Origin: a virus
Lineage: Duplodnaviria > Heunggongvirae > Uroviricota > Caudoviricetes
Virus record (IMG/VR): IMGVR_UViG_2671180724_000008
Reading direction: 5' to 3' (one strand)
Length of the DNA stretch: 64,000 nucleotides
Shown here: positions 10,264-64,000 of the stretch, piece after piece
Layout: each line of letters begins with the position of its first letter
Position numbering within the stretch: position 1 is the stretch's first letter
The notes under the pieces: model-generated
Database searches by the model: none
What the model was told of the DNA's origin: nothing
Seen by the model: the letters and a program-made list of their open reading frames with translations, nothing else
Translations under genes and position numbers: made by a program

Positions 10264-10339
10264 GATGGTGTAGCTCAGCGGTAGAGCAGTTGGCTGTTAA
10301 CCAACTGGTCGGTGGTTCGAATCCACCCACCATCGCCAA
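10264..10339 (+). tRNA. tRNA-Asn (anticodon GUU)
   Basis: Cloverleaf by hand: acceptor GATGGTG/CACCATC, anticodon stem GTTGG/CCAAC with loop CTGTTAA, T-arm GGTGG-TTCGAAT-CCACC, 3' CCA. Confidence 0.8.
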
Positions 10340-10343
10340 TTTA

Positions 10344-10430
10344 GGGGAGTTAGTCCGTAGAGGTAGCGGTGTAGACTGTAAATCTACTGTCATTGCGACT
10401 CGGGTGGTTCGACTCCATCACTCCCCACCA
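10344..10430 (+). tRNA. tRNA-Tyr (anticodon GUA), long variable arm
   Basis: Acceptor GGGGAGT/ACTCCCC, anticodon stem GTAGA/TCTAC with loop CTGTAAA, T-loop TTCGACT, 3' CCA. Confidence 0.7.
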
Positions 10431-10434
10431 AATT

Positions 10435-10510
10435 GCCGGTTTAGCTCAGTTGGTAGAGCGCCTGCCTTGTAAGCAGGATGTCAGCGGTTCGTGTCCGTTA
10501 ACCGGCACCA
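10435..10510 (+). tRNA. tRNA-Thr (anticodon UGU)
   Basis: Acceptor GCCGGTT/AACCGGC, D-arm GCTC-AGTTGGTA-GAGC, anticodon loop CTTGTAA, T-arm AGCGG-TTCGTGT-CCGTT, 3' CCA. Confidence 0.8.
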
Positions 10511-10518
10511 ACATAATA

Positions 10519-10598
10519 TTGAGAACATTGGCGTAACGGGGTCATATCCCAATCTATGAATAAATGTTACGTTGCCGCGTGACAACCAGTGTTCTCAA
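10519..10598. repeat. Stem-enclosed element (TTGAGAACATTGG / CCAGTGTTCTCAA) with nested CGTAAC/GTTACG stem
   Basis: 13-bp inverted repeat; same CACAnnGTTGAG stem family in inverted orientation. Confidence 0.5.
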
Positions 10599-11178
10599 CA
10601 TTGTGGTGAATGCACAGGCTGATGTGCCGCAACTACAGTAGTGCGCGCTTTGCGGGGCTTGCTACAACCCTGTGTCGGAGATCAGCGCCGACCATCACAA
10701 TTTGGCTCTCTTGCAACAGCATAACGCTGAAATATGTCCAACCTGGTGCGGCCTGTTCACCCGCCGTTAGCTCCACGAAACGGAGCGCACAACAGATAAG
10801 AGAACTTCCCATATGGGGCTTGGCTTAAATGCATCGAGTTCTCTTATCGCTGTGTCACAGACAAATTTCCGACAGCCCTGTTTATCATCGGACGCAACCT
10901 AAAAGGTCGAGGCAAAGCCAGGTAATAGCGGAGGGAGTGACACAGCACACAACAGGTAAGAGCATTTGTAGAGTTCGACTCTCTACCGTGGGCTTTTTCC
11001 CGCGATGCGAGCCATAAATGCTCTTTCCGTTGTGGTGGATTCGCAGACTGATGCGATAGCTTTCTTGGATGTTAGGGAAATGCGGCCGCAAATCTTCCCT
11101 TTCGCGAGCGGTGATCGTCCGTAGTCCTAATTGGCTGCACCGTATGCCGGAGATTCAGTACCGGCCACCACAACGGCC

Positions 11179-11265
11179 GGAGAGTAGGGAGCATGGTGCT
11201 CAAGCGGTCTTGAAAACCGTCCCATTGTGCAAACGATGATGGTTCGATTCCATTACTCTCCGCCA
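11179..11265 (+). tRNA. tRNA-Ser (anticodon UGA), long variable arm
   Basis: Acceptor GGAGAGT/ACTCTCC, anticodon stem-loop GGTCTTGAAAACC as in enterobacterial tRNA-Ser(UGA), T-loop TTCGATT, 3' GCCA; D-arm atypical. Confidence 0.65.
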
Positions 11266-13211: not shown

Positions 13212-13349
13212 TTCCCACCAAACTCACTCCCGTTTCCCTTAAAATTCAAAAAACAACGTCAAAATGATTCCATACCTACTATGTATGGAATCATTCGTGA
13301 AAATGAGTTACTTTTACTCTTGATCCTATAAGAATCTATGCCTAATATA

Positions 13350-13365
13350 CTGTTTACTTATACAG
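13350..13365. promoter_or_regulatory. LexA (SOS) box CTGTTTACTTATACAG, about 29 bp upstream of the recombinase start
   Basis: Matches CTGT-N8-ACAG with AT-rich spacer. Confidence 0.6.
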
Positions 13366-13393
13366 TGAATCGGCGTAACTCGGTGATTGTCAT

Positions 13394-14497
13394 ATGAAAA
13401 ATAGCTTTGACAGAGCACGCGCTGCGGAGAACACCTCAAAAGAGGCGATTGAGTATCTCGAAAGAGCATCTCAAATGCAGGCCGTTATGATCTCGCAGGT
13501 TAGCAATGACATGAGATTCTCGGACGCATTCATGTTATTCACTCGCTTATCTCTGCTTATAACCAGACGTCGGCCAGAGATCGCTGTTCATTGTATTTTG
13601 ATACATGTTTTGCCGCACATTGCTGATGTAAAAGTAAGTGACATTAATAGGTTCATGGTGAACCAACTGGTAAACCCACTAATACTGGATGGCAAAATTG
13701 TTATGGGCCGCCGCGTTTTCTCTCTGATGAAGCAGTTCCTTAGCTGGTGCGCCTTCCAGGGGATGATAGACGTGTCACCGTTAAACGATATGTCACTAAA
13801 CAAAGTTGCCGGTGGCGCAAAGCCCACACCTCGCGAGCGGAAGCTGACCGACGCAGAGGTATGGGTGTTCTGGAATATATGGGACTACTTCAATGTGTGC
13901 GCTGGTACAAAATGGGCGGCCAGGCTGTGTCTTGTATCAGCAAGACGACCTGACGAAGTACTGCGGGCTAAAAAAAGTGAGTTCAATCTTAAGCGTGGGG
14001 TTTGGAATCAAGGCAAGAGAAACAAGTCAGCACGTGAGCATTCGCTGCCTTTAAGCACATTAATGCGCACATGCATTGAAGAGTTGTTCGAATACGGTAA
14101 AGACAGCCAGTGGCTCGTGCCTTCGAATAAAAAAATCGGGAAAGACCTTCCTATGTCTAAAGTGGCAATAGCCCAGGCATTACGTCGTATTCTGGAACGA
14201 CCAGAACTGATGGAGCTTGAGCCATTTACACCCCGAGATTTGCGCCGTACTGCGCGTAGTTACTTCCCAGCATTAGGCATAAGCCAGGAGGTATCACGCA
14301 AAATCATGAACCACAGTCTTGAGGGGATAGATCGGGTCTACGACCGGCACGATTATATGGACGAGATGCGAGACGCCTTAGAAAGTTTCTCGACGTACAT
14401 CGCATCAATCGTAGAGCAACCGGATTTAGACGAAATTGACCACAAATTCAAGGGAGATCGTCTATCAACAGAGCTTATTCGTGTAAATTTTTCATAG
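13394..14497 (+). CDS. Tyrosine recombinase (phage integrase family); integration versus dimer-resolution role unresolved
   Basis: C-terminal motifs RDLRRTARSY and HSLEG...RVYDRHDY resembling P4-type integrase R/H-x-x-R/Y signature, recalled from memory; no obvious N-terminal arm-binding domain. Confidence 0.65.
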   Translation: MKNSFDRARAAENTSKEAIEYLERASQMQAVMISQVSNDMRFSDAFMLFTRLSLLITRRRPEIAVHCILIHVLPHIADVKVSDINRFMVNQLVNPLILDGKIVMGRRVFSLMKQFLSWCAFQGMIDVSPLNDMSLNKVAGGAKPTPRERKLTDAEVWVFWNIWDYFNVCAGTKWAARLCLVSARRPDEVLRAKKSEFNLKRGVWNQGKRNKSAREHSLPLSTLMRTCIEELFEYGKDSQWLVPSNKKIGKDLPMSKVAIAQALRRILERPELMELEPFTPRDLRRTARSYFPALGISQEVSRKIMNHSLEGIDRVYDRHDYMDEMRDALESFSTYIASIVEQPDLDEIDHKFKGDRLSTELIRVNFS

Positions 14498-44747: not shown

Positions 44748-45161
44748 ATGGCAAGAGGTATGTATGTCTTATGCGAAATTGAAGGTGTGCTGGCAAATAC
44801 CAGCCATCGTAAATCTGTATCTGACGCGGATGCAGGCCAGCTCATTGCCGGTGATGAACTCATTTTCCCTACCAGCCGTATGTTGCGTGGTTTTGCTCGC
44901 TCAGGGGCTGAAGTGGTGCTTATCAGTAGCCGCTCTGAAACCCTTGAAGCGCCCACTAAACGATGGCTGAAAGATTTTGGTGTTGATTACGACTGGCTTC
45001 ATCTCGTACCGAATGGCATCAGTTATGAGAAGCATATTAAGCGCACATTAGCGGAGCATAAAGGCGATCTGCTTATCGCTGCGCTGGTGCACGATCCTCG
45101 ACTCCGTGCCGCTTTAGCTGACTCTCATCATAGACCGGTCATCTATGAGGTGGGCAAATGA
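44748..45161 (+). CDS. Hypothetical protein
   Basis: In-frame ATG at 44748 just after thyA stop; stop overlaps DHFR start. Confidence 0.45.
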   Translation: MARGMYVLCEIEGVLANTSHRKSVSDADAGQLIAGDELIFPTSRMLRGFARSGAEVVLISSRSETLEAPTKRWLKDFGVDYDWLHLVPNGISYEKHIKRTLAEHKGDLLIAALVHDPRLRAALADSHHRPVIYEVGK

Positions 45162-45634
45162 AGATGATAGCTGCTGTTGGCCGTAATTATGAGATCGGTA
45201 GAGCGAACGAACTGCCCTGGCGTTGCTCTACCGATCTGAAGCTATTTAAGAGACTCACCAAAAACGCCACTGTCGTTATGGGACGTAAAACGATGGAAAG
45301 TCTCAAACGCCCTCTTCCAGAGCGTCATAATCTCGTTTTGACGCGCTCTCATGGCTTTGTACCAAATGGATTCTACCCTGCTGGTGTGGATGATGTGTTG
45401 CGATTACCAGAGCCTGTGTGGGTGATTGGCGGGGAACAAATTTACTCGCTATTCATGCCGCATGTTGAAGAGATTTGGCTCTCCCACATCGGCGTTGATG
45501 TACCAAACGCTGATGCATTCTTCCCGGCAAGCATGATGCGTAACTTAGGCTTTGTGCCTGTTGAAACAGCTTATACCCAACGAGCCAGCGAGGAAGAGCC
45601 TGGCTTTTCGCAGATCGTATACAGAAGGTCGTAA
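45158..45634 (+). CDS. folA: Dihydrofolate reductase
   Basis: N-terminus MIAAVGRNYEIG...LPW and VVMGRKTMESL resemble FolA. Confidence 0.85.
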   Translation: MKMIAAVGRNYEIGRANELPWRCSTDLKLFKRLTKNATVVMGRKTMESLKRPLPERHNLVLTRSHGFVPNGFYPAGVDDVLRLPEPVWVIGGEQIYSLFMPHVEEIWLSHIGVDVPNADAFFPASMMRNLGFVPVETAYTQRASEEEPGFSQIVYRRS

Positions 45635-59656: not shown

Positions 59657-60240
59657 TTGAAATAACAAAAGAAGAACTAACACAGGCAACAAAGGAGTAC
59701 GGGAAAAAGCACATCGCGCATCGTATGGCGAATGTGTTACTGGCCTTGTCTGAACAAAAGCCATCTGCGTTTGTAATGAAAGATGATTTGGCCGATCCGG
59801 CAATTGTTTCGACTCCGGCATATTTAGATATTGAGGATGCGGAACAAAAAACGATTGGGGATATTGTCGCGCTTTATGCCGATCCCTTTCCTGTCATCGG
59901 TGACACTACTGCTCTTGTGGACGATATTTTAAACATTCTCGCGCTTCTTGAGGCTGGCGATTGGTCAGAACATTGCACTAAAACGGAGTTAGGCGGTCGG
60001 CTTGAAAGAGAGATTACACAACTTATTGGTGATGCCCAAAATGATTTGTCACCTGAGCATCTCCCCTGCGATGTAGTCCTTGTGCCAGGGATGAGGATAC
60101 ACGAAGGCGTCAGAACGAAAACATTATTAACCGCATTACAGAGAAGAGCCGAACTAAGCTCGCGGATAAAGTTGATGCCATCCAAAATATTTGATGTCGT
60201 CAAATTTACGCCATCACAACATACTGAGAGAGATAAATGA
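59653..60240 (+). CDS. Hypothetical protein, possibly a distant third paralog
   Basis: N-terminal IEITKEELTQA weakly resembles members A and B. Confidence 0.45.
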   Translation: MIEITKEELTQATKEYGKKHIAHRMANVLLALSEQKPSAFVMKDDLADPAIVSTPAYLDIEDAEQKTIGDIVALYADPFPVIGDTTALVDDILNILALLEAGDWSEHCTKTELGGRLEREITQLIGDAQNDLSPEHLPCDVVLVPGMRIHEGVRTKTLLTALQRRAELSSRIKLMPSKIFDVVKFTPSQHTERDK

Positions 60241-60863
60241 GCACGGTAGCGAAAGATCTCACAGAAGATATTCTCAATGAAATTATTGCTGGTGCGAATA
60301 CCTCGCTTGAGCAACTTCTTGCGTTAGCACTGAGAGCCGAACGTCGAGACAGAAATCGTTTTTATGAGCGATTACCAGGGAAACGACCAGATAGATCAGA
60401 TGAAGATGGTTGCGATATAGACTACATGGAGCCTTCAGAGATTTATCAACTTGGTAAAGATGACGGCTGGAACGCTTATCACGATGCTGTGATGAAGTTG
60501 GATGAAAAAGTTAAACCTCTTTCTCGACCGGTAGATCACGGTTTCCGCGATAACTGCGAATGCTCTAGTTGCCAGACCACGGCCCGTATTTGTTCCGAAT
60601 TGACAGATAAATCCAGCCTAATCTACGAAGTTAATGTAGGCGGTAATACATGGGTCGAATGCACAAGAGCTGCATACGTAAGAGCAAAAGACAAGGGTGA
60701 ATTAACCAGAGTTGTTGCCCATCACCCAAATAATGAGCTTAAAGATCACCAAATTCGAGAACTGGTGAACGAGTTGAGGGATATTGCGGTTCAGTACCAC
60801 GGAACGCAGCAATTGCGGGAGAAGATTGCCAGAGCAGTGAACAACTCAGTCCGTAAAAAATAA
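60237..60863 (+). CDS. Hypothetical protein
   Basis: 208-aa ORF; last phage-like gene before the non-coding junction region. Confidence 0.45.
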   Translation: MSTVAKDLTEDILNEIIAGANTSLEQLLALALRAERRDRNRFYERLPGKRPDRSDEDGCDIDYMEPSEIYQLGKDDGWNAYHDAVMKLDEKVKPLSRPVDHGFRDNCECSSCQTTARICSELTDKSSLIYEVNVGGNTWVECTRAAYVRAKDKGELTRVVAHHPNNELKDHQIRELVNELRDIAVQYHGTQQLREKIARAVNNSVRKK

Positions 60864-61076
60864 GCAATAGTACGATAAAGAGGCCCCATGCTCTTGATGG
60901 GGCCTGTAGCAACTAGCGTTATGGACGCTGGTTTACGTACTCAATGATCGCTTTGATAATCGCGAACATCGGCGGCACGATTTTGAACAGTAAGTTAACC
61001 ATAACAGGCCTCACTTAGTTTTATCGCGCCTAGCTGCAAATACCTTTGGGCTTGCCTTTGCAGTTGCAATATCTGT

Positions 61077-61096
61077 AGTCGCCAGATACTTACGGC
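61077..61096. repeat. 20-bp direct repeat AGTCGCCAGATACTTACGGC (copy 1)
   Basis: 19/20 identical copy at 61250-61269; each copy next to a short hairpin. Confidence 0.6.
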
Positions 61097-61249
61097 ACGA
61101 TTTCGAGTTAAGGTAAGGTTTTAGAGTCACCAAAAACCTGGACTTAAATCTTCTTTGAGAACAACGATGTTTAGTAAATGGTCATTATTACCTGGTATGA
61201 CCACTCAACGTTTCTTGATGAATCCAGTACATTCGGTTAATCTTAATTC

Positions 61250-61269
61250 AGTCGCCAGATACTTATGGC
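61250..61269. repeat. 20-bp direct repeat AGTCGCCAGATACTTATGGC (copy 2)
   Basis: See copy 1. Confidence 0.6.
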
Positions 61270-61302
61270 TCAGGAACAGAGCCGCAAACTCTGTTTCCTT
61301 TT

Positions 61303-61333
61303 AAAAAGCCCAGCCTAGTCAACTGGGCTTTTT
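61303..61333. terminator. Bidirectional rho-independent terminator (AAAAAGCCCAG ... CTGGGCTTTTT)
   Basis: 8-bp GC stem flanked by A-run and T-run. Confidence 0.75.
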
Positions 61334-61631
61334 AATGTCTATTTTTAACCCAATGAACCTTCAATACCGCAACATCAGTGTCTTGCGAATTAAGATAGTG
61401 TGTATAGGTTATACATGCAAGTGCATAACTCTGTGGATAACTCAGGAAGGAAAAAGTAGCTTCCGCGCAATTTAGGCCAGACAAGGCTTTCGCAAAAATC
61501 AACGGAGAGAAAAAAATTTGTTAAAAATAACGTTTGTTGGAATTGTATATATTTATGCCTTTCAATAGTTAGCATCTTATTAACATCTTTTTTAAGAGAT
61601 AGAGTTCAAAAATATATAGCTTCAACATATA

Positions 61632-61647
61632 CTGTATGCATATACAG
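61632..61647. promoter_or_regulatory. LexA (SOS) box CTGTATGCATATACAG upstream of the UmuD'-like gene
   Basis: Perfect CTGT-N8-ACAG within TACTGTATGCATATACAGTA, about 20 bp upstream of ATG 61666. Confidence 0.8.
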
Positions 61648-61665
61648 TATTAAGAGGCGAGTATT

Positions 61666-62055
61666 ATGGGCTTCCCTTCTCCTGCGGCGGATTATGCTGA
61701 GAGCCGTATTTCTCTTGATCAGCAGATAATTAGACATCCTTCAGCGACCTACTTCTTGAGGGCAGCTGATAGCCATCATCGTGAGGGAATATTGCAGGGT
61801 GCATTGCTGGTGGTCGATTCCTCACTCACTCCTGTTGATGGATCTCTTCTTGTATGTGCTCTGGATGGGGAATATCGCGTAAAAAGATACCGGAAGTATC
61901 CACGTCAGCATCTGGAGGATTTAAGAACTGGTAAGAAGGAAGCATTGCCAAAGGATGATGATGGATGCACGGGCAGCAATGCCGTGTTTGGTGTGATCAC
62001 TCACATTATCAACGACGCAAGAAGTGGCGAGTTTGATGATTGTCCTGTGATGTAG
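61666..62055 (+). CDS. UmuD'-like protein: UmuD homolog encoded without the N-terminal pro-peptide, starting at the residues that follow the UmuD self-cleavage site
   Basis: Begins MGFPSPAADY, colinear with UmuD after Cys24-Gly25; retains DS and VKR catalytic-region residues; comparable to P1 HumD as recalled. Confidence 0.8.
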   Translation: MGFPSPAADYAESRISLDQQIIRHPSATYFLRAADSHHREGILQGALLVVDSSLTPVDGSLLVCALDGEYRVKRYRKYPRQHLEDLRTGKKEALPKDDDGCTGSNAVFGVITHIINDARSGEFDDCPVM

Positions 62056-62092
62056 GAGAACTGTTTAGGTGGTGCATTGCACCACCTTTTTA

Positions 62093-63193
62093 TCACACTG
62101 CGCGGAATGCGATTTCGCCAGGTATTACTTCACCTTGCCAATACATTTGGGCAGCAACGCGATCTGCGAGGTCACGATAAATAGCCGTAAATTCGCTATC
62201 TGGACGACTAATAACGGTTGGTGTTCCGTTATCCAGATCCTCACGAAGAGAGATATGAAGTGGCATTTGGCCTAACAACTGCGTGTTGTATTTCTCGGCC
62301 AGTTTCTGTGCGCCACCGGTGCCAAAAATTGGCTCGTGATGACCGCAGTTACTGCAAATATGCACACTCATGTTTTCGACGATACCTAGTACCGGCACTT
62401 CGACTTTTTCGAACATCACAATGCCTTTCTTCGCATCGATCAGCGCGATGTCTTGCGGCGTAGTTACCACAACCGCACCAGTTACAGGAATGTTCTGCGC
62501 CAGCGTCAATTGAATATCACCAGTGCCCGGCGGCATATCGAGAACGAGATAGTCCAGATCAGGCCACAGTGTTTCCTGCAACATCTGCATCAGCGCCTTG
62601 CTGGCCATCGGTCCACGCCACACCATTGCATTGTCGTCGGTGACCAGATAACCAATAGAGTTGGTTGCCAGGCCATGAGACATGATAGGTGCCATGTGAG
62701 TACCGTCCGGTGAGGTTGGACGTTGGTTTTCCGCACCCAGCATGGTTGGAATTGATGGACCGTAGATATCGGCATCCAAAATACCAACTTTCGCACCTTC
62801 AGCAGCCAACGCCAGTGCCAAGTTTACTGCTGTGGACGATTTGCCTACACCGCCCTTGCCTGAGCTGACGGCGATGATGTTCTTAACGCCATTAATGCCT
62901 GGTTGGTTTTTGACGCGCTTAAGCGTGGCAATGTTGTACGACAGCTTCCAGTCGATAGCCTTTGCGCCAGTGATACGGAGCAGATCACCACTACATTGCT
63001 CTTTCAGGTCTTCAAAAGGCTTATTCCACACGAAAGGCATGATTAGTTCGACATGCAGTGTGTCATCCATCAACGCAACATGGTGTAACGCTTTAAGCGT
63101 AGTCAGGTTGTGCTTCAGGGTTGGGTGCTGAAAATTAGCCAGCGTACCGGCTACCATTGCTCTCAGGGCATCCGGCGATTTGGACTCGCTCAT
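62093..63193 (-). CDS. apbC: Fe-S cluster carrier ATPase Mrp/ApbC (host chromosomal)
   Basis: Near-identical over most of its length to enterobacterial Mrp as recalled (SGKGGVGKSSTAVNLA, CxxC motif); divergent from metG as in E. coli. Confidence 0.95.
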   Translation of the reverse strand: MSESKSPDALRAMVAGTLANFQHPTLKHNLTTLKALHHVALMDDTLHVELIMPFVWNKPFEDLKEQCSGDLLRITGAKAIDWKLSYNIATLKRVKNQPGINGVKNIIAVSSGKGGVGKSSTAVNLALALAAEGAKVGILDADIYGPSIPTMLGAENQRPTSPDGTHMAPIMSHGLATNSIGYLVTDDNAMVWRGPMASKALMQMLQETLWPDLDYLVLDMPPGTGDIQLTLAQNIPVTGAVVVTTPQDIALIDAKKGIVMFEKVEVPVLGIVENMSVHICSNCGHHEPIFGTGGAQKLAEKYNTQLLGQMPLHISLREDLDNGTPTVISRPDSEFTAIYRDLADRVAAQMYWQGEVIPGEIAFRAV

Positions 63194-63350
63194 CCCGTCT
63201 CCTTTATTTTAATTTGCGCAATTGTCGCCTTGTAGTGTACTCCAGCTACGACATTTAATCATTTATGAGAAATGCTGTTATCACATGGCAGACATAAGGC
63301 CATTTTGTTACTATCAAGCCCCTTTTCACTACAAAGAAGTAATGCCTACT

Positions 63351-64000
63351 ATGACCCAAGTCGCGAAGAAAATTCTGGTGACGTGCGCGCTGCCGTACGC
63401 TAACGGCTCAATCCACCTCGGCCATATGCTGGAGCACATCCAGGCTGATGTCTGGGTTCGTTACCAGCGAATGCGCGGCCACGAGGTTAATTTCATCTGT
63501 GCCGACGATGCCCACGGTACGCCGATCATGCTGAAAGCACAGCAGCTTGGTATCACACCGGAACAGATGATTGGCGAAATGAGCCAGGAACACCAGACTG
63601 ATTTCGCAGGCTTTAACATCAGCTATGACAACTATCACTCGACGCACAGCGAAGAGAACCGCCAGCTGTCTGAGCTTATCTATACTCGCCTGAAAGAGAA
63701 CGGTTTTATTAAAAACCGCACTATCTCTCAGTTGTACGACCCGGAAAAAGGCATGTTCCTGCCGGATCGTTTTGTGAAAGGCACCTGTCCGAAATGTAAA
63801 GCGCCAGATCAATACGGCGATAACTGTGAAGTTTGCGGCGCGACCTACAGCCCGACTGAACTGATTGAGCCGAAATCGGTAGTTTCTGGCGCTACGCCGG
63901 TAATGCGTGATTCTGAACACTTCTTCTTTGATCTGCCCTCTTTCAGCGAAATGTTGCAGGCATGGACCCGCAGCGGTGCGTTGCAGGAGCAGGTGGCAAA
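63351..64000 (+). CDS. metG: Methionyl-tRNA synthetase, 5' partial (runs off window end)
   Basis: N-terminus [35 protein letters not shown] with HIGH-type motif and zinc knuckle CPKC...CEVC, matching E. coli MetG. Confidence 0.95.

Follow-up and report, generated by a model that had tools for sequence, protein, structure and literature searches.

The window analyzed here, a 64,000-nt stretch of DNA, contained at 61666-62055 (+) an ORF of 129 aa, humD, which encodes an S24-family protein in the UmuD′ form with the N-terminus MGFPSPAADY. Residues Ser36 and Lys73 of the product are equivalent to UmuD Ser60 and Lys97, and the protein ends in the C-terminal tail SGEFDDCPVM. The ATG was preceded by a Shine-Dalgarno-like AAGAGG (61652-61657, +; 8 nt 5′ of the ATG, read directly from the sequence), an in-frame TAA stop codon (61651-61653, +), a predicted LexA (SOS) box, TACTGTATGCATATACAGTA (61630-61649), ending 16 nt 5′ of the ATG, and a promoter-like site (61605-61633, +). 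Downstream, an intrinsic-terminator hairpin, AGGTGGTGCA-T-TGCACCACCT, followed by a T run (62067-62092), lay between humD and the convergent apbC. The neighbors were a plasmid-borne apbC/mrp paralog of 366 aa (62093-63193, -), outside the humD unit, and the 5′ part of a plasmid-borne metG (methionine-tRNA ligase; 63351-64000, +), which runs off the window. The gap between humD and the apbC/mrp stop codon (62056-62092) was 37 bp long, as given in the preliminary description. The same description had placed the whole unit at 61632-62055; the features are present there, but position 61632 falls at the CTGT with which the predicted box is written, and the ORF itself starts at 61666.

The start of humD coincided with the start of the processed form of UmuD. 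Among solved structures, HumD matched UmuD′ (1umu_A, E = 6.8e-23), with HumD residue 2 paired with residue 1 of that structure; full-length UmuD (PDB 8gmt_B) was also aligned, and Gly2 paired with Gly25 of UmuD, the residue with which UmuD′ begins. The frame upstream of the ATG read TAA-E-A-S-I-ATG, and the TAA four codons 5′ of the ATG thus excluded an in-frame upstream start that would restore the N-terminal pro-peptide. These results bear out the earlier proposal of a protein synthesized from the outset as UmuD′. When six proteins were aligned, the five from phages all began with M/V-GFPSPA and E. coli UmuD had a 24-residue arm ahead of that motif. Of the 90%-identity clusters, the closest 120 were inspected, and 106 had GFPSP at position 2; in the small number of longer gene calls, Met stood directly before GFPSP (Thr in P0072), and the extensions were unlike the UmuD arm. 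The comparison of the window humD with P1 humD gave dN/dS = 0.05 at dS = 0.90. Thus, humD is under purifying selection, and is neither a chance ORF nor a remnant.

When compared with the 20-bp LexA consensus, TACTGTATGCATATACAGTA showed two mismatches, both in the central spacer. It was the sole match with three or fewer mismatches in the 64-kb window, and no such match was found in 100 shuffles; the bare CTGT-N8-ACAG pattern was found twice versus 1.0 expected, which is not significant alone. The near-consensus SOS box that had been noted just upstream of the gene therefore holds as a predicted site. The box aligned with the annotated LexA site of P1, which lies 19 nt ahead of the P1 humD start, and with the boxes of N15, a lambdoid prophage, and E. 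coli umuDC, and the phiKO2 record carries an annotated LexA site at its humD homolog. Both the LexA box and the Shine-Dalgarno sequence were conserved among the aligned humD relatives. The promoter-like site consisted of a -35 element, TTCAAA (61605-61610), a 17-nt spacer, and a -10 element, TATACT (61628-61633), which extends 4 bases into the predicted LexA box. No other sigma-70-like match was found in 61200-62200; this one agreed at 9 of 12 positions, and the promoter is putative, being a consensus match alone, of which 1.9 were expected in shuffles. The terminator hairpin proper occupied 62067-62087, with a 9-bp stem, and a compensatory change (T>C on one side, A>G on the other) in the Cyrano and lambdoid copies keeps this stem paired.

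The limits of homology around the gene were sharp. DNA homology to P1 (83%) covered 61630-62054, which is exactly the LexA box plus the humD ORF, and homology to the plasmid pMRY16-002_2 resumed at 61628; thus, the box and humD move as one cassette among P1-like, SSU5-like, and N15-like phage-plasmids and lambdoid phages.

The stretch of approximately 770 bp upstream of humD (60864-61629) had no ORF longer than 61 aa. It included 20-nt direct repeats, AGTCGCCAGATACTTA(C/T)GGC, at 61077 and 61250, a 13-bp perfect hairpin with a terminator-like T run (61301-61335), and a segment with 77% similarity to the upfO/hot-promoter region of P1 (61416-61540). Rfam searches at gathering thresholds returned tRNAs only and no family match in the spacer 60864-61629. 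Four phage-plasmid tRNA genes, Asn-GTT, Tyr-GTA, Thr-TGT, and Ser-TGA, were located at 10264-11265.

Protein family searches gave a consistent assignment. HumD matched the NCBIfam equivalog NF051876, “HumD family translesion DNA polymerase,” with 217.7 bits (cut-off 120) from residue 1 to 129 on profile positions 1-129 of 129, and Pfam PF00717 (Peptidase_S24) with 39.8 bits (cut-off 23.3). Assignment to UmuD proper was rejected because the score against NF007621 (UmuD, Pol V autoproteolytic subunit) was 86.6 bits, under the cut-off of 110, and because the protein has no N-terminal arm and no umuC was found. Assignment to the LexA repressor (TIGR00498) was rejected as well, with 29 bits versus 110.95 and a match to the C-terminal domain alone (profile 91-166). 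The window HumD was 99.2% identical to the proteins of Cyrano and PhiR41_1, 90.7% identical to P1 HumD (90.7-91.5% across P1 and P7), and 65-72% identical to N15 gp26, phiKO2 gp23, and HK140 gp28. The suggestion that the gene shares the architecture of P1 HumD agrees with this identity, with the HumD equivalog match, and with the shared start and LexA box. Of the alignments that had been proposed earlier, those with UmuD and P1 HumD were obtained, but MucA was covered only via the N-terminal extensions present in 68 of 150 cluster representatives. Because the HumD alignment was too shallow (45 sequences, at least 67% identity), the AlphaFold2 model (mean pLDDT 45.5) was too poor to use. By sequence, we identify the gene as the humD of an SSU5-like phage-plasmid, orthologous to P1 HumD.

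The assignment to this kind of element follows the matches of the window as a whole. Positions 40000-64000 were 97.3-97.5% identical over 81-85% of their length to the phage-plasmids CMS-2020a, Cyrano, and PhiR41_1 (approximately 108 kb) and approximately 80% identical over 59% to Salmonella phage SSU5, and positions 1-25000 matched E. coli plasmids of approximately 105-115 kb with dnaE, a DnaB-like helicase, and ligase. Cyrano, which is pLF82 of E. coli LF82, has been described as an SSU5-like phage-plasmid; it forms virions, and genotoxic stress induces it (PMC9928086). The gene order in Cyrano is humD, an apbC homolog (annotated as “MinD”), full-length metG, and then more phage genes. In the circular 109-kb plasmid pMRY16-002_2, humD-apbC-metG lies between an early region with nrdB, thymidylate synthase, and dfrA51 and a region of partition, terminase, portal, and capsid genes. 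The Cyrano apbC homolog has been listed as a moron with expression 9-fold above background in lysogeny (PMC9928086), and a phage-plasmid-borne metG was linked to antimicrobial survival in Shigella sonnei in Tam et al. 2024, as that work is cited in PMC12452169.

Two further loci of the element were noted. The 158-aa ORF at 45158-45634 (+) maps by coordinates, within a block of 98.6% identity, to the PGAP-annotated trimethoprim-resistant dihydrofolate reductase DfrA51 of pMRY16-002_2; a recent paper reported the DfrA51 gene from phage-plasmids (PMC12217456). A second LexA-like box, TACTGTTTACTTATACAGTG (13348-13367), was found 26 nt upstream of a tyrosine-integrase ORF (13394-14497, +; Pfam Phage_integrase). 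Klebsiella SSU5-like phage-plasmids, which have an overall identity of only approximately 73%, retain this box in a form nearer to consensus (TACTGTATATAAACACAGTA), and its retention in these relatives suggests that the integrase/resolvase of the SSU5-like phage-plasmid group may be SOS-controlled.

The 793-bp humD region was widespread: of the 5,426 complete E. coli genomes, 814 carried it, with 769 places on plasmids and 165 on chromosomes. One chromosomal place, the lambdoid prophage of E. coli SB0258h1 at tRNA-Thr/proA (L001 10598-12856), matched window positions 59897-62156 at 97.6% identity. There, the humD module adjoins xis/int and holds humD, the terminator, and approximately 62 bp from the 3′ end of apbC, where the similarity ends. 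This fragment of apbC indicates that the humD copy of the prophage came from an SSU5-like phage-plasmid context.

No partner polymerase gene was detected in the DNA that was searched. With E. coli UmuC as the tblastn query, there was no significant hit to the 64-kb window (best E = 0.18) or to a 42-kb stretch of pMRY16-002_2, and PGAP annotated no Y-family polymerase in the pMRY16-002_2 stretch examined. The window represents 64 kb of an element of approximately 108 kb, so the absence of umuC outside it rests on related records. At most two of the 136 UmuC-bearing phage records were from Escherichia phages; HumD was present in 33 Escherichia phage records. Because no umuC was found in the DNA examined, HumD would have to work with host factors.

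The best explanation of these data, to which we give a probability of approximately 0.85, is that humD encodes a LexA-repressed, pre-activated UmuD′ that pairs with host UmuC and skips RecA-dependent cleavage. In the lysogenic or plasmid state, host LexA on the box overlapping the -10 element and the start site would keep humD off; upon DNA damage, RecA-stimulated self-cleavage of LexA would derepress it. HumD would be translated in the UmuD′ form, with the counterpart of UmuD Gly25 directly after the initiating Met, and this start would make RecA-dependent self-cleavage unnecessary. Activation of UmuD itself is delayed by its slow RecA-dependent self-cleavage. A HumD dimer, together with host UmuC (plus RecA-ATP), would then form a Pol V-like translesion polymerase, and lesion bypass and mutagenesis would set in sooner or be increased, plausibly aiding replication of damaged phage-plasmid DNA at induction. 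The P1 protein can stand in for UmuD′ in mutagenesis and UV survival (P1 RefSeq note; PMC7092418), and P1 humD is under LexA regulation (PMC9603915). Within the HumD family, replacement of UmuD′, binding to UmuC and to RecA filaments, and dimer formation are on record for P1 HumD alone (P1 RefSeq note; PMC7092418). From the 91% identity and the identical architecture to P1 HumD, we infer LexA repression, derepression, direct synthesis of the UmuD′ form, and assembly with UmuC for the window gene; LexA binding, dimerization, binding to UmuC and RecA, and an effect on mutagenesis are likewise presumed for its product. In the work of McLenigan in 1999, P1 HumD was reportedly poorly expressed, and good complementation is said to have been obtained only from a high-copy plasmid. 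Given this reported poor expression, the in vivo effect of HumD may be small.

Two features of the protein are not explained by a simple UmuD′-substitute model: the retention of Lys73 and Ser36/Thr36, and the invariant tail. The equivalent of UmuD Lys97, K73, was invariant in 45 of 45 HumD family members, and at residue 36 (codon 61771-61773), the equivalent of UmuD Ser60, 25 of them had Ser, 19 had Thr, and 1 had Ala, with Ser in the window and P1 proteins. The UmuD GDSM motif was degraded in HumD to ADSH and was one residue shorter. This pattern fits a Lys73 kept for a structural or binding role, with relaxed selection for self-cleavage.

The tail GEFDDCPVM comprises HumD residues 121-129 (62026-62052), the full 10-residue extension being SGEFDDCPVM. 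Its tip, E-F-D-D-C-P-V-[M/I/L] (here EFDDCPVM), was invariant or nearly so in the family, and the nearby loop 97-105 was highly variable (n = 45); one relative with 51% identity terminated in EFDDTPF. Full-length proteins starting with MGFPSPA made up 23 of 150 50%-identity cluster representatives, and the acidic tail was found by regular expression in 6 of these 23, with 3 more similar by eye. The tail was found in none of the 68 representatives in the same set that carry N-terminal extensions, most of which end in [A/C]-G directly ahead of GFPSPA. Neither UmuD nor any of the pro-peptide-bearing relatives that were examined had the tail, which occurred only in pre-cleaved family members. The HumD tip resembles the C-terminus of E. 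coli SSB, DFDDDIPF, and PMC5872125 describes the SSB-Ct hexapeptide, DDDIPF. That the 8-residue tip is a short linear motif mimicking the SSB C-terminal tip is a speculative and rather improbable reading of this resemblance, which no paper found in the literature discusses for HumD. If it were true, the SSB-like tip would dock HumD on the SSB-binding pockets of host replication and repair proteins, or compete with SSB for them, and the targeting or timing of the HumD2-UmuC polymerase would differ from that of host Pol V.

Other functions can be considered for a protein of this kind. HumD might mainly modulate RecA filaments and the SOS response, as do DinI or PsiB, rather than mutagenesis; alone or with UmuC, it would then damp recombination, the cleavage of LexA or repressor, or the timing of induction. 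DinI is a RecA-filament-binding protein, and in phiKO2 and HK140 the humD homolog adjoins a dinI homolog, the two genes being divergent or tandem about a shared LexA site. HumD reportedly bound RecA filaments in vitro in the work of McLenigan in 1999, and the conserved acidic tail hints at an additional partner. However, no dinI adjoins humD in the window, and P1 HumD complements UmuD′ (P1 RefSeq note; PMC7092418), so we consider RecA modulation unlikely as the main role, although it and a role in mutagenesis are not mutually exclusive. HumD could also act as an S24 peptidase in trans that cleaves host UmuD or a LexA-like substrate, such as a repressor, through Ser36 and Lys73. The UmuD S60/K97 pair is present as S36/K73, and the Lys never varies in the family, but the variation at the nucleophile (25 of the 45 members have Ser, 19 have Thr, and 1 has Ala) and the shortened, degraded GDSM motif fit relaxed selection on catalysis and make a trans peptidase very unlikely.

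It had also been suggested that the gene sits at an element-host border, so that its ownership was unsure; in that case, it could be a chromosomal gene of the host that borders an integrated element and has the host mrp/metG beside it. The genes apbC and metG are indeed normally chromosomal housekeeping genes, and 5,426 of 5,426 E. coli genomes carry chromosomal apbC-metG, but window positions 62056-64000 were only approximately 87.5% identical to those copies versus 96-99% to plasmid copies (222 plasmid places) and 97.8% to Cyrano. No match above approximately 85% DNA identity that could identify a chromosomal donor of apbC-metG was found among 80 Enterobacteriaceae species representatives, Escherichia being closest. 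Nor was humD universal at this locus in relatives free of the element: it was within 3 kb of chromosomal apbC at 0 of 80 Enterobacteriaceae species loci. These identities, the phage-plasmid genes on both sides of humD in the 109-kb circle of pMRY16-002_2, and the 0 of 80 loci argue that the plasmid apbC and metG are old, diverged paralogs and that humD is, on this comparative evidence, an internal gene of the phage-plasmid. The suggested border was therefore not supported; a position at a prophage-chromosome junction was rejected, and a host origin of the gene is refuted for practical purposes. A functionless, 5′-truncated umuD remnant could be suspected from the missing N-terminal 24 residues and the missing umuC partner. 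This candidate was already refuted by dN/dS of 0.05 at dS 0.9 and by the M-GFPSPA start in 106 of the 120 closest clusters, and it is further opposed by the conserved box and Shine-Dalgarno sequence and by the functional P1 HumD; its probability is negligible.

A LexA-repressed, pre-activated UmuD′ would remove one of the two safety catches of error-prone Pol V, since LexA control stays and the delay of RecA-dependent cleavage is gone. Because humD is so common (814 of the 5,426 E. coli genomes, with plasmids as its main location), it could raise damage-induced mutagenesis in clinical strains, possibly including the mutagenesis provoked by SOS-inducing antibiotics such as quinolones. The principle of a pre-cleaved UmuD′ has reportedly been known since the 1999 work of McLenigan on P1 HumD. 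The gene itself is already known, with an NCBI family model in existence, and the system in the window is not of a new type. The functional reading of the preliminary description is, on our analysis, correct, because the gene matches a curated family with an experimentally characterized founder; the practical correction is that the neighboring apbC-metG is phage-plasmid cargo, not host DNA.

Among known systems, P1 HumD (YP_006569; McLenigan et al. 1999, PMID 10559166) was like the window protein in its length (129 aa), its MGFPSPAADY start, its C-terminal tail, the distance from the LexA box to the ATG, and the absence of a umuC partner. The elements differ: the window belongs to an SSU5-like siphovirus phage-plasmid, and P1 humD has phd-doc downstream, whereas the window has apbC-metG. 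In addition, P1 has the divergent gene lxr, no counterpart of which was found in the window, where the P1 homology starts at the LexA box. E. coli UmuD/UmuD′ (PDB 1UMU, 1I4V, and 8GMT) was 44% identical to the window HumD, with the S24 fold by sequence; the Ser and Lys equivalents and a similar LexA box are common to both. Unlike UmuD, the window HumD lacks the 24-residue pro-peptide, the Cys24-Gly25 cleavage site, and the umuC operon, and it has ten C-terminal residues beyond the end of UmuD. N15 gp26, phiKO2 gp23, and HK140 gp28 had the pre-cleaved start and the tail of the window HumD, but Thr at the position of the Ser nucleophile that the window and P1 proteins retain. Their genes lie between tail-fiber genes and par or int, often adjoining dinI, in linear phage-plasmids (N15 and phiKO2) and a lambdoid phage (HK140). 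The closest systems were Cyrano (pLF82; CYRAN_98) and E. coli plasmids of approximately 100 kb such as pMRY16-002_2 (WP_000506720), with 99.2% amino acid identity. Their early-gene cargo differs from that of the window upstream of approximately 60528 (Cyrano) or 61628 (pMRY16-002_2), but they share the humD-apbC-metG order and the terminator with the window and otherwise show essentially no difference.
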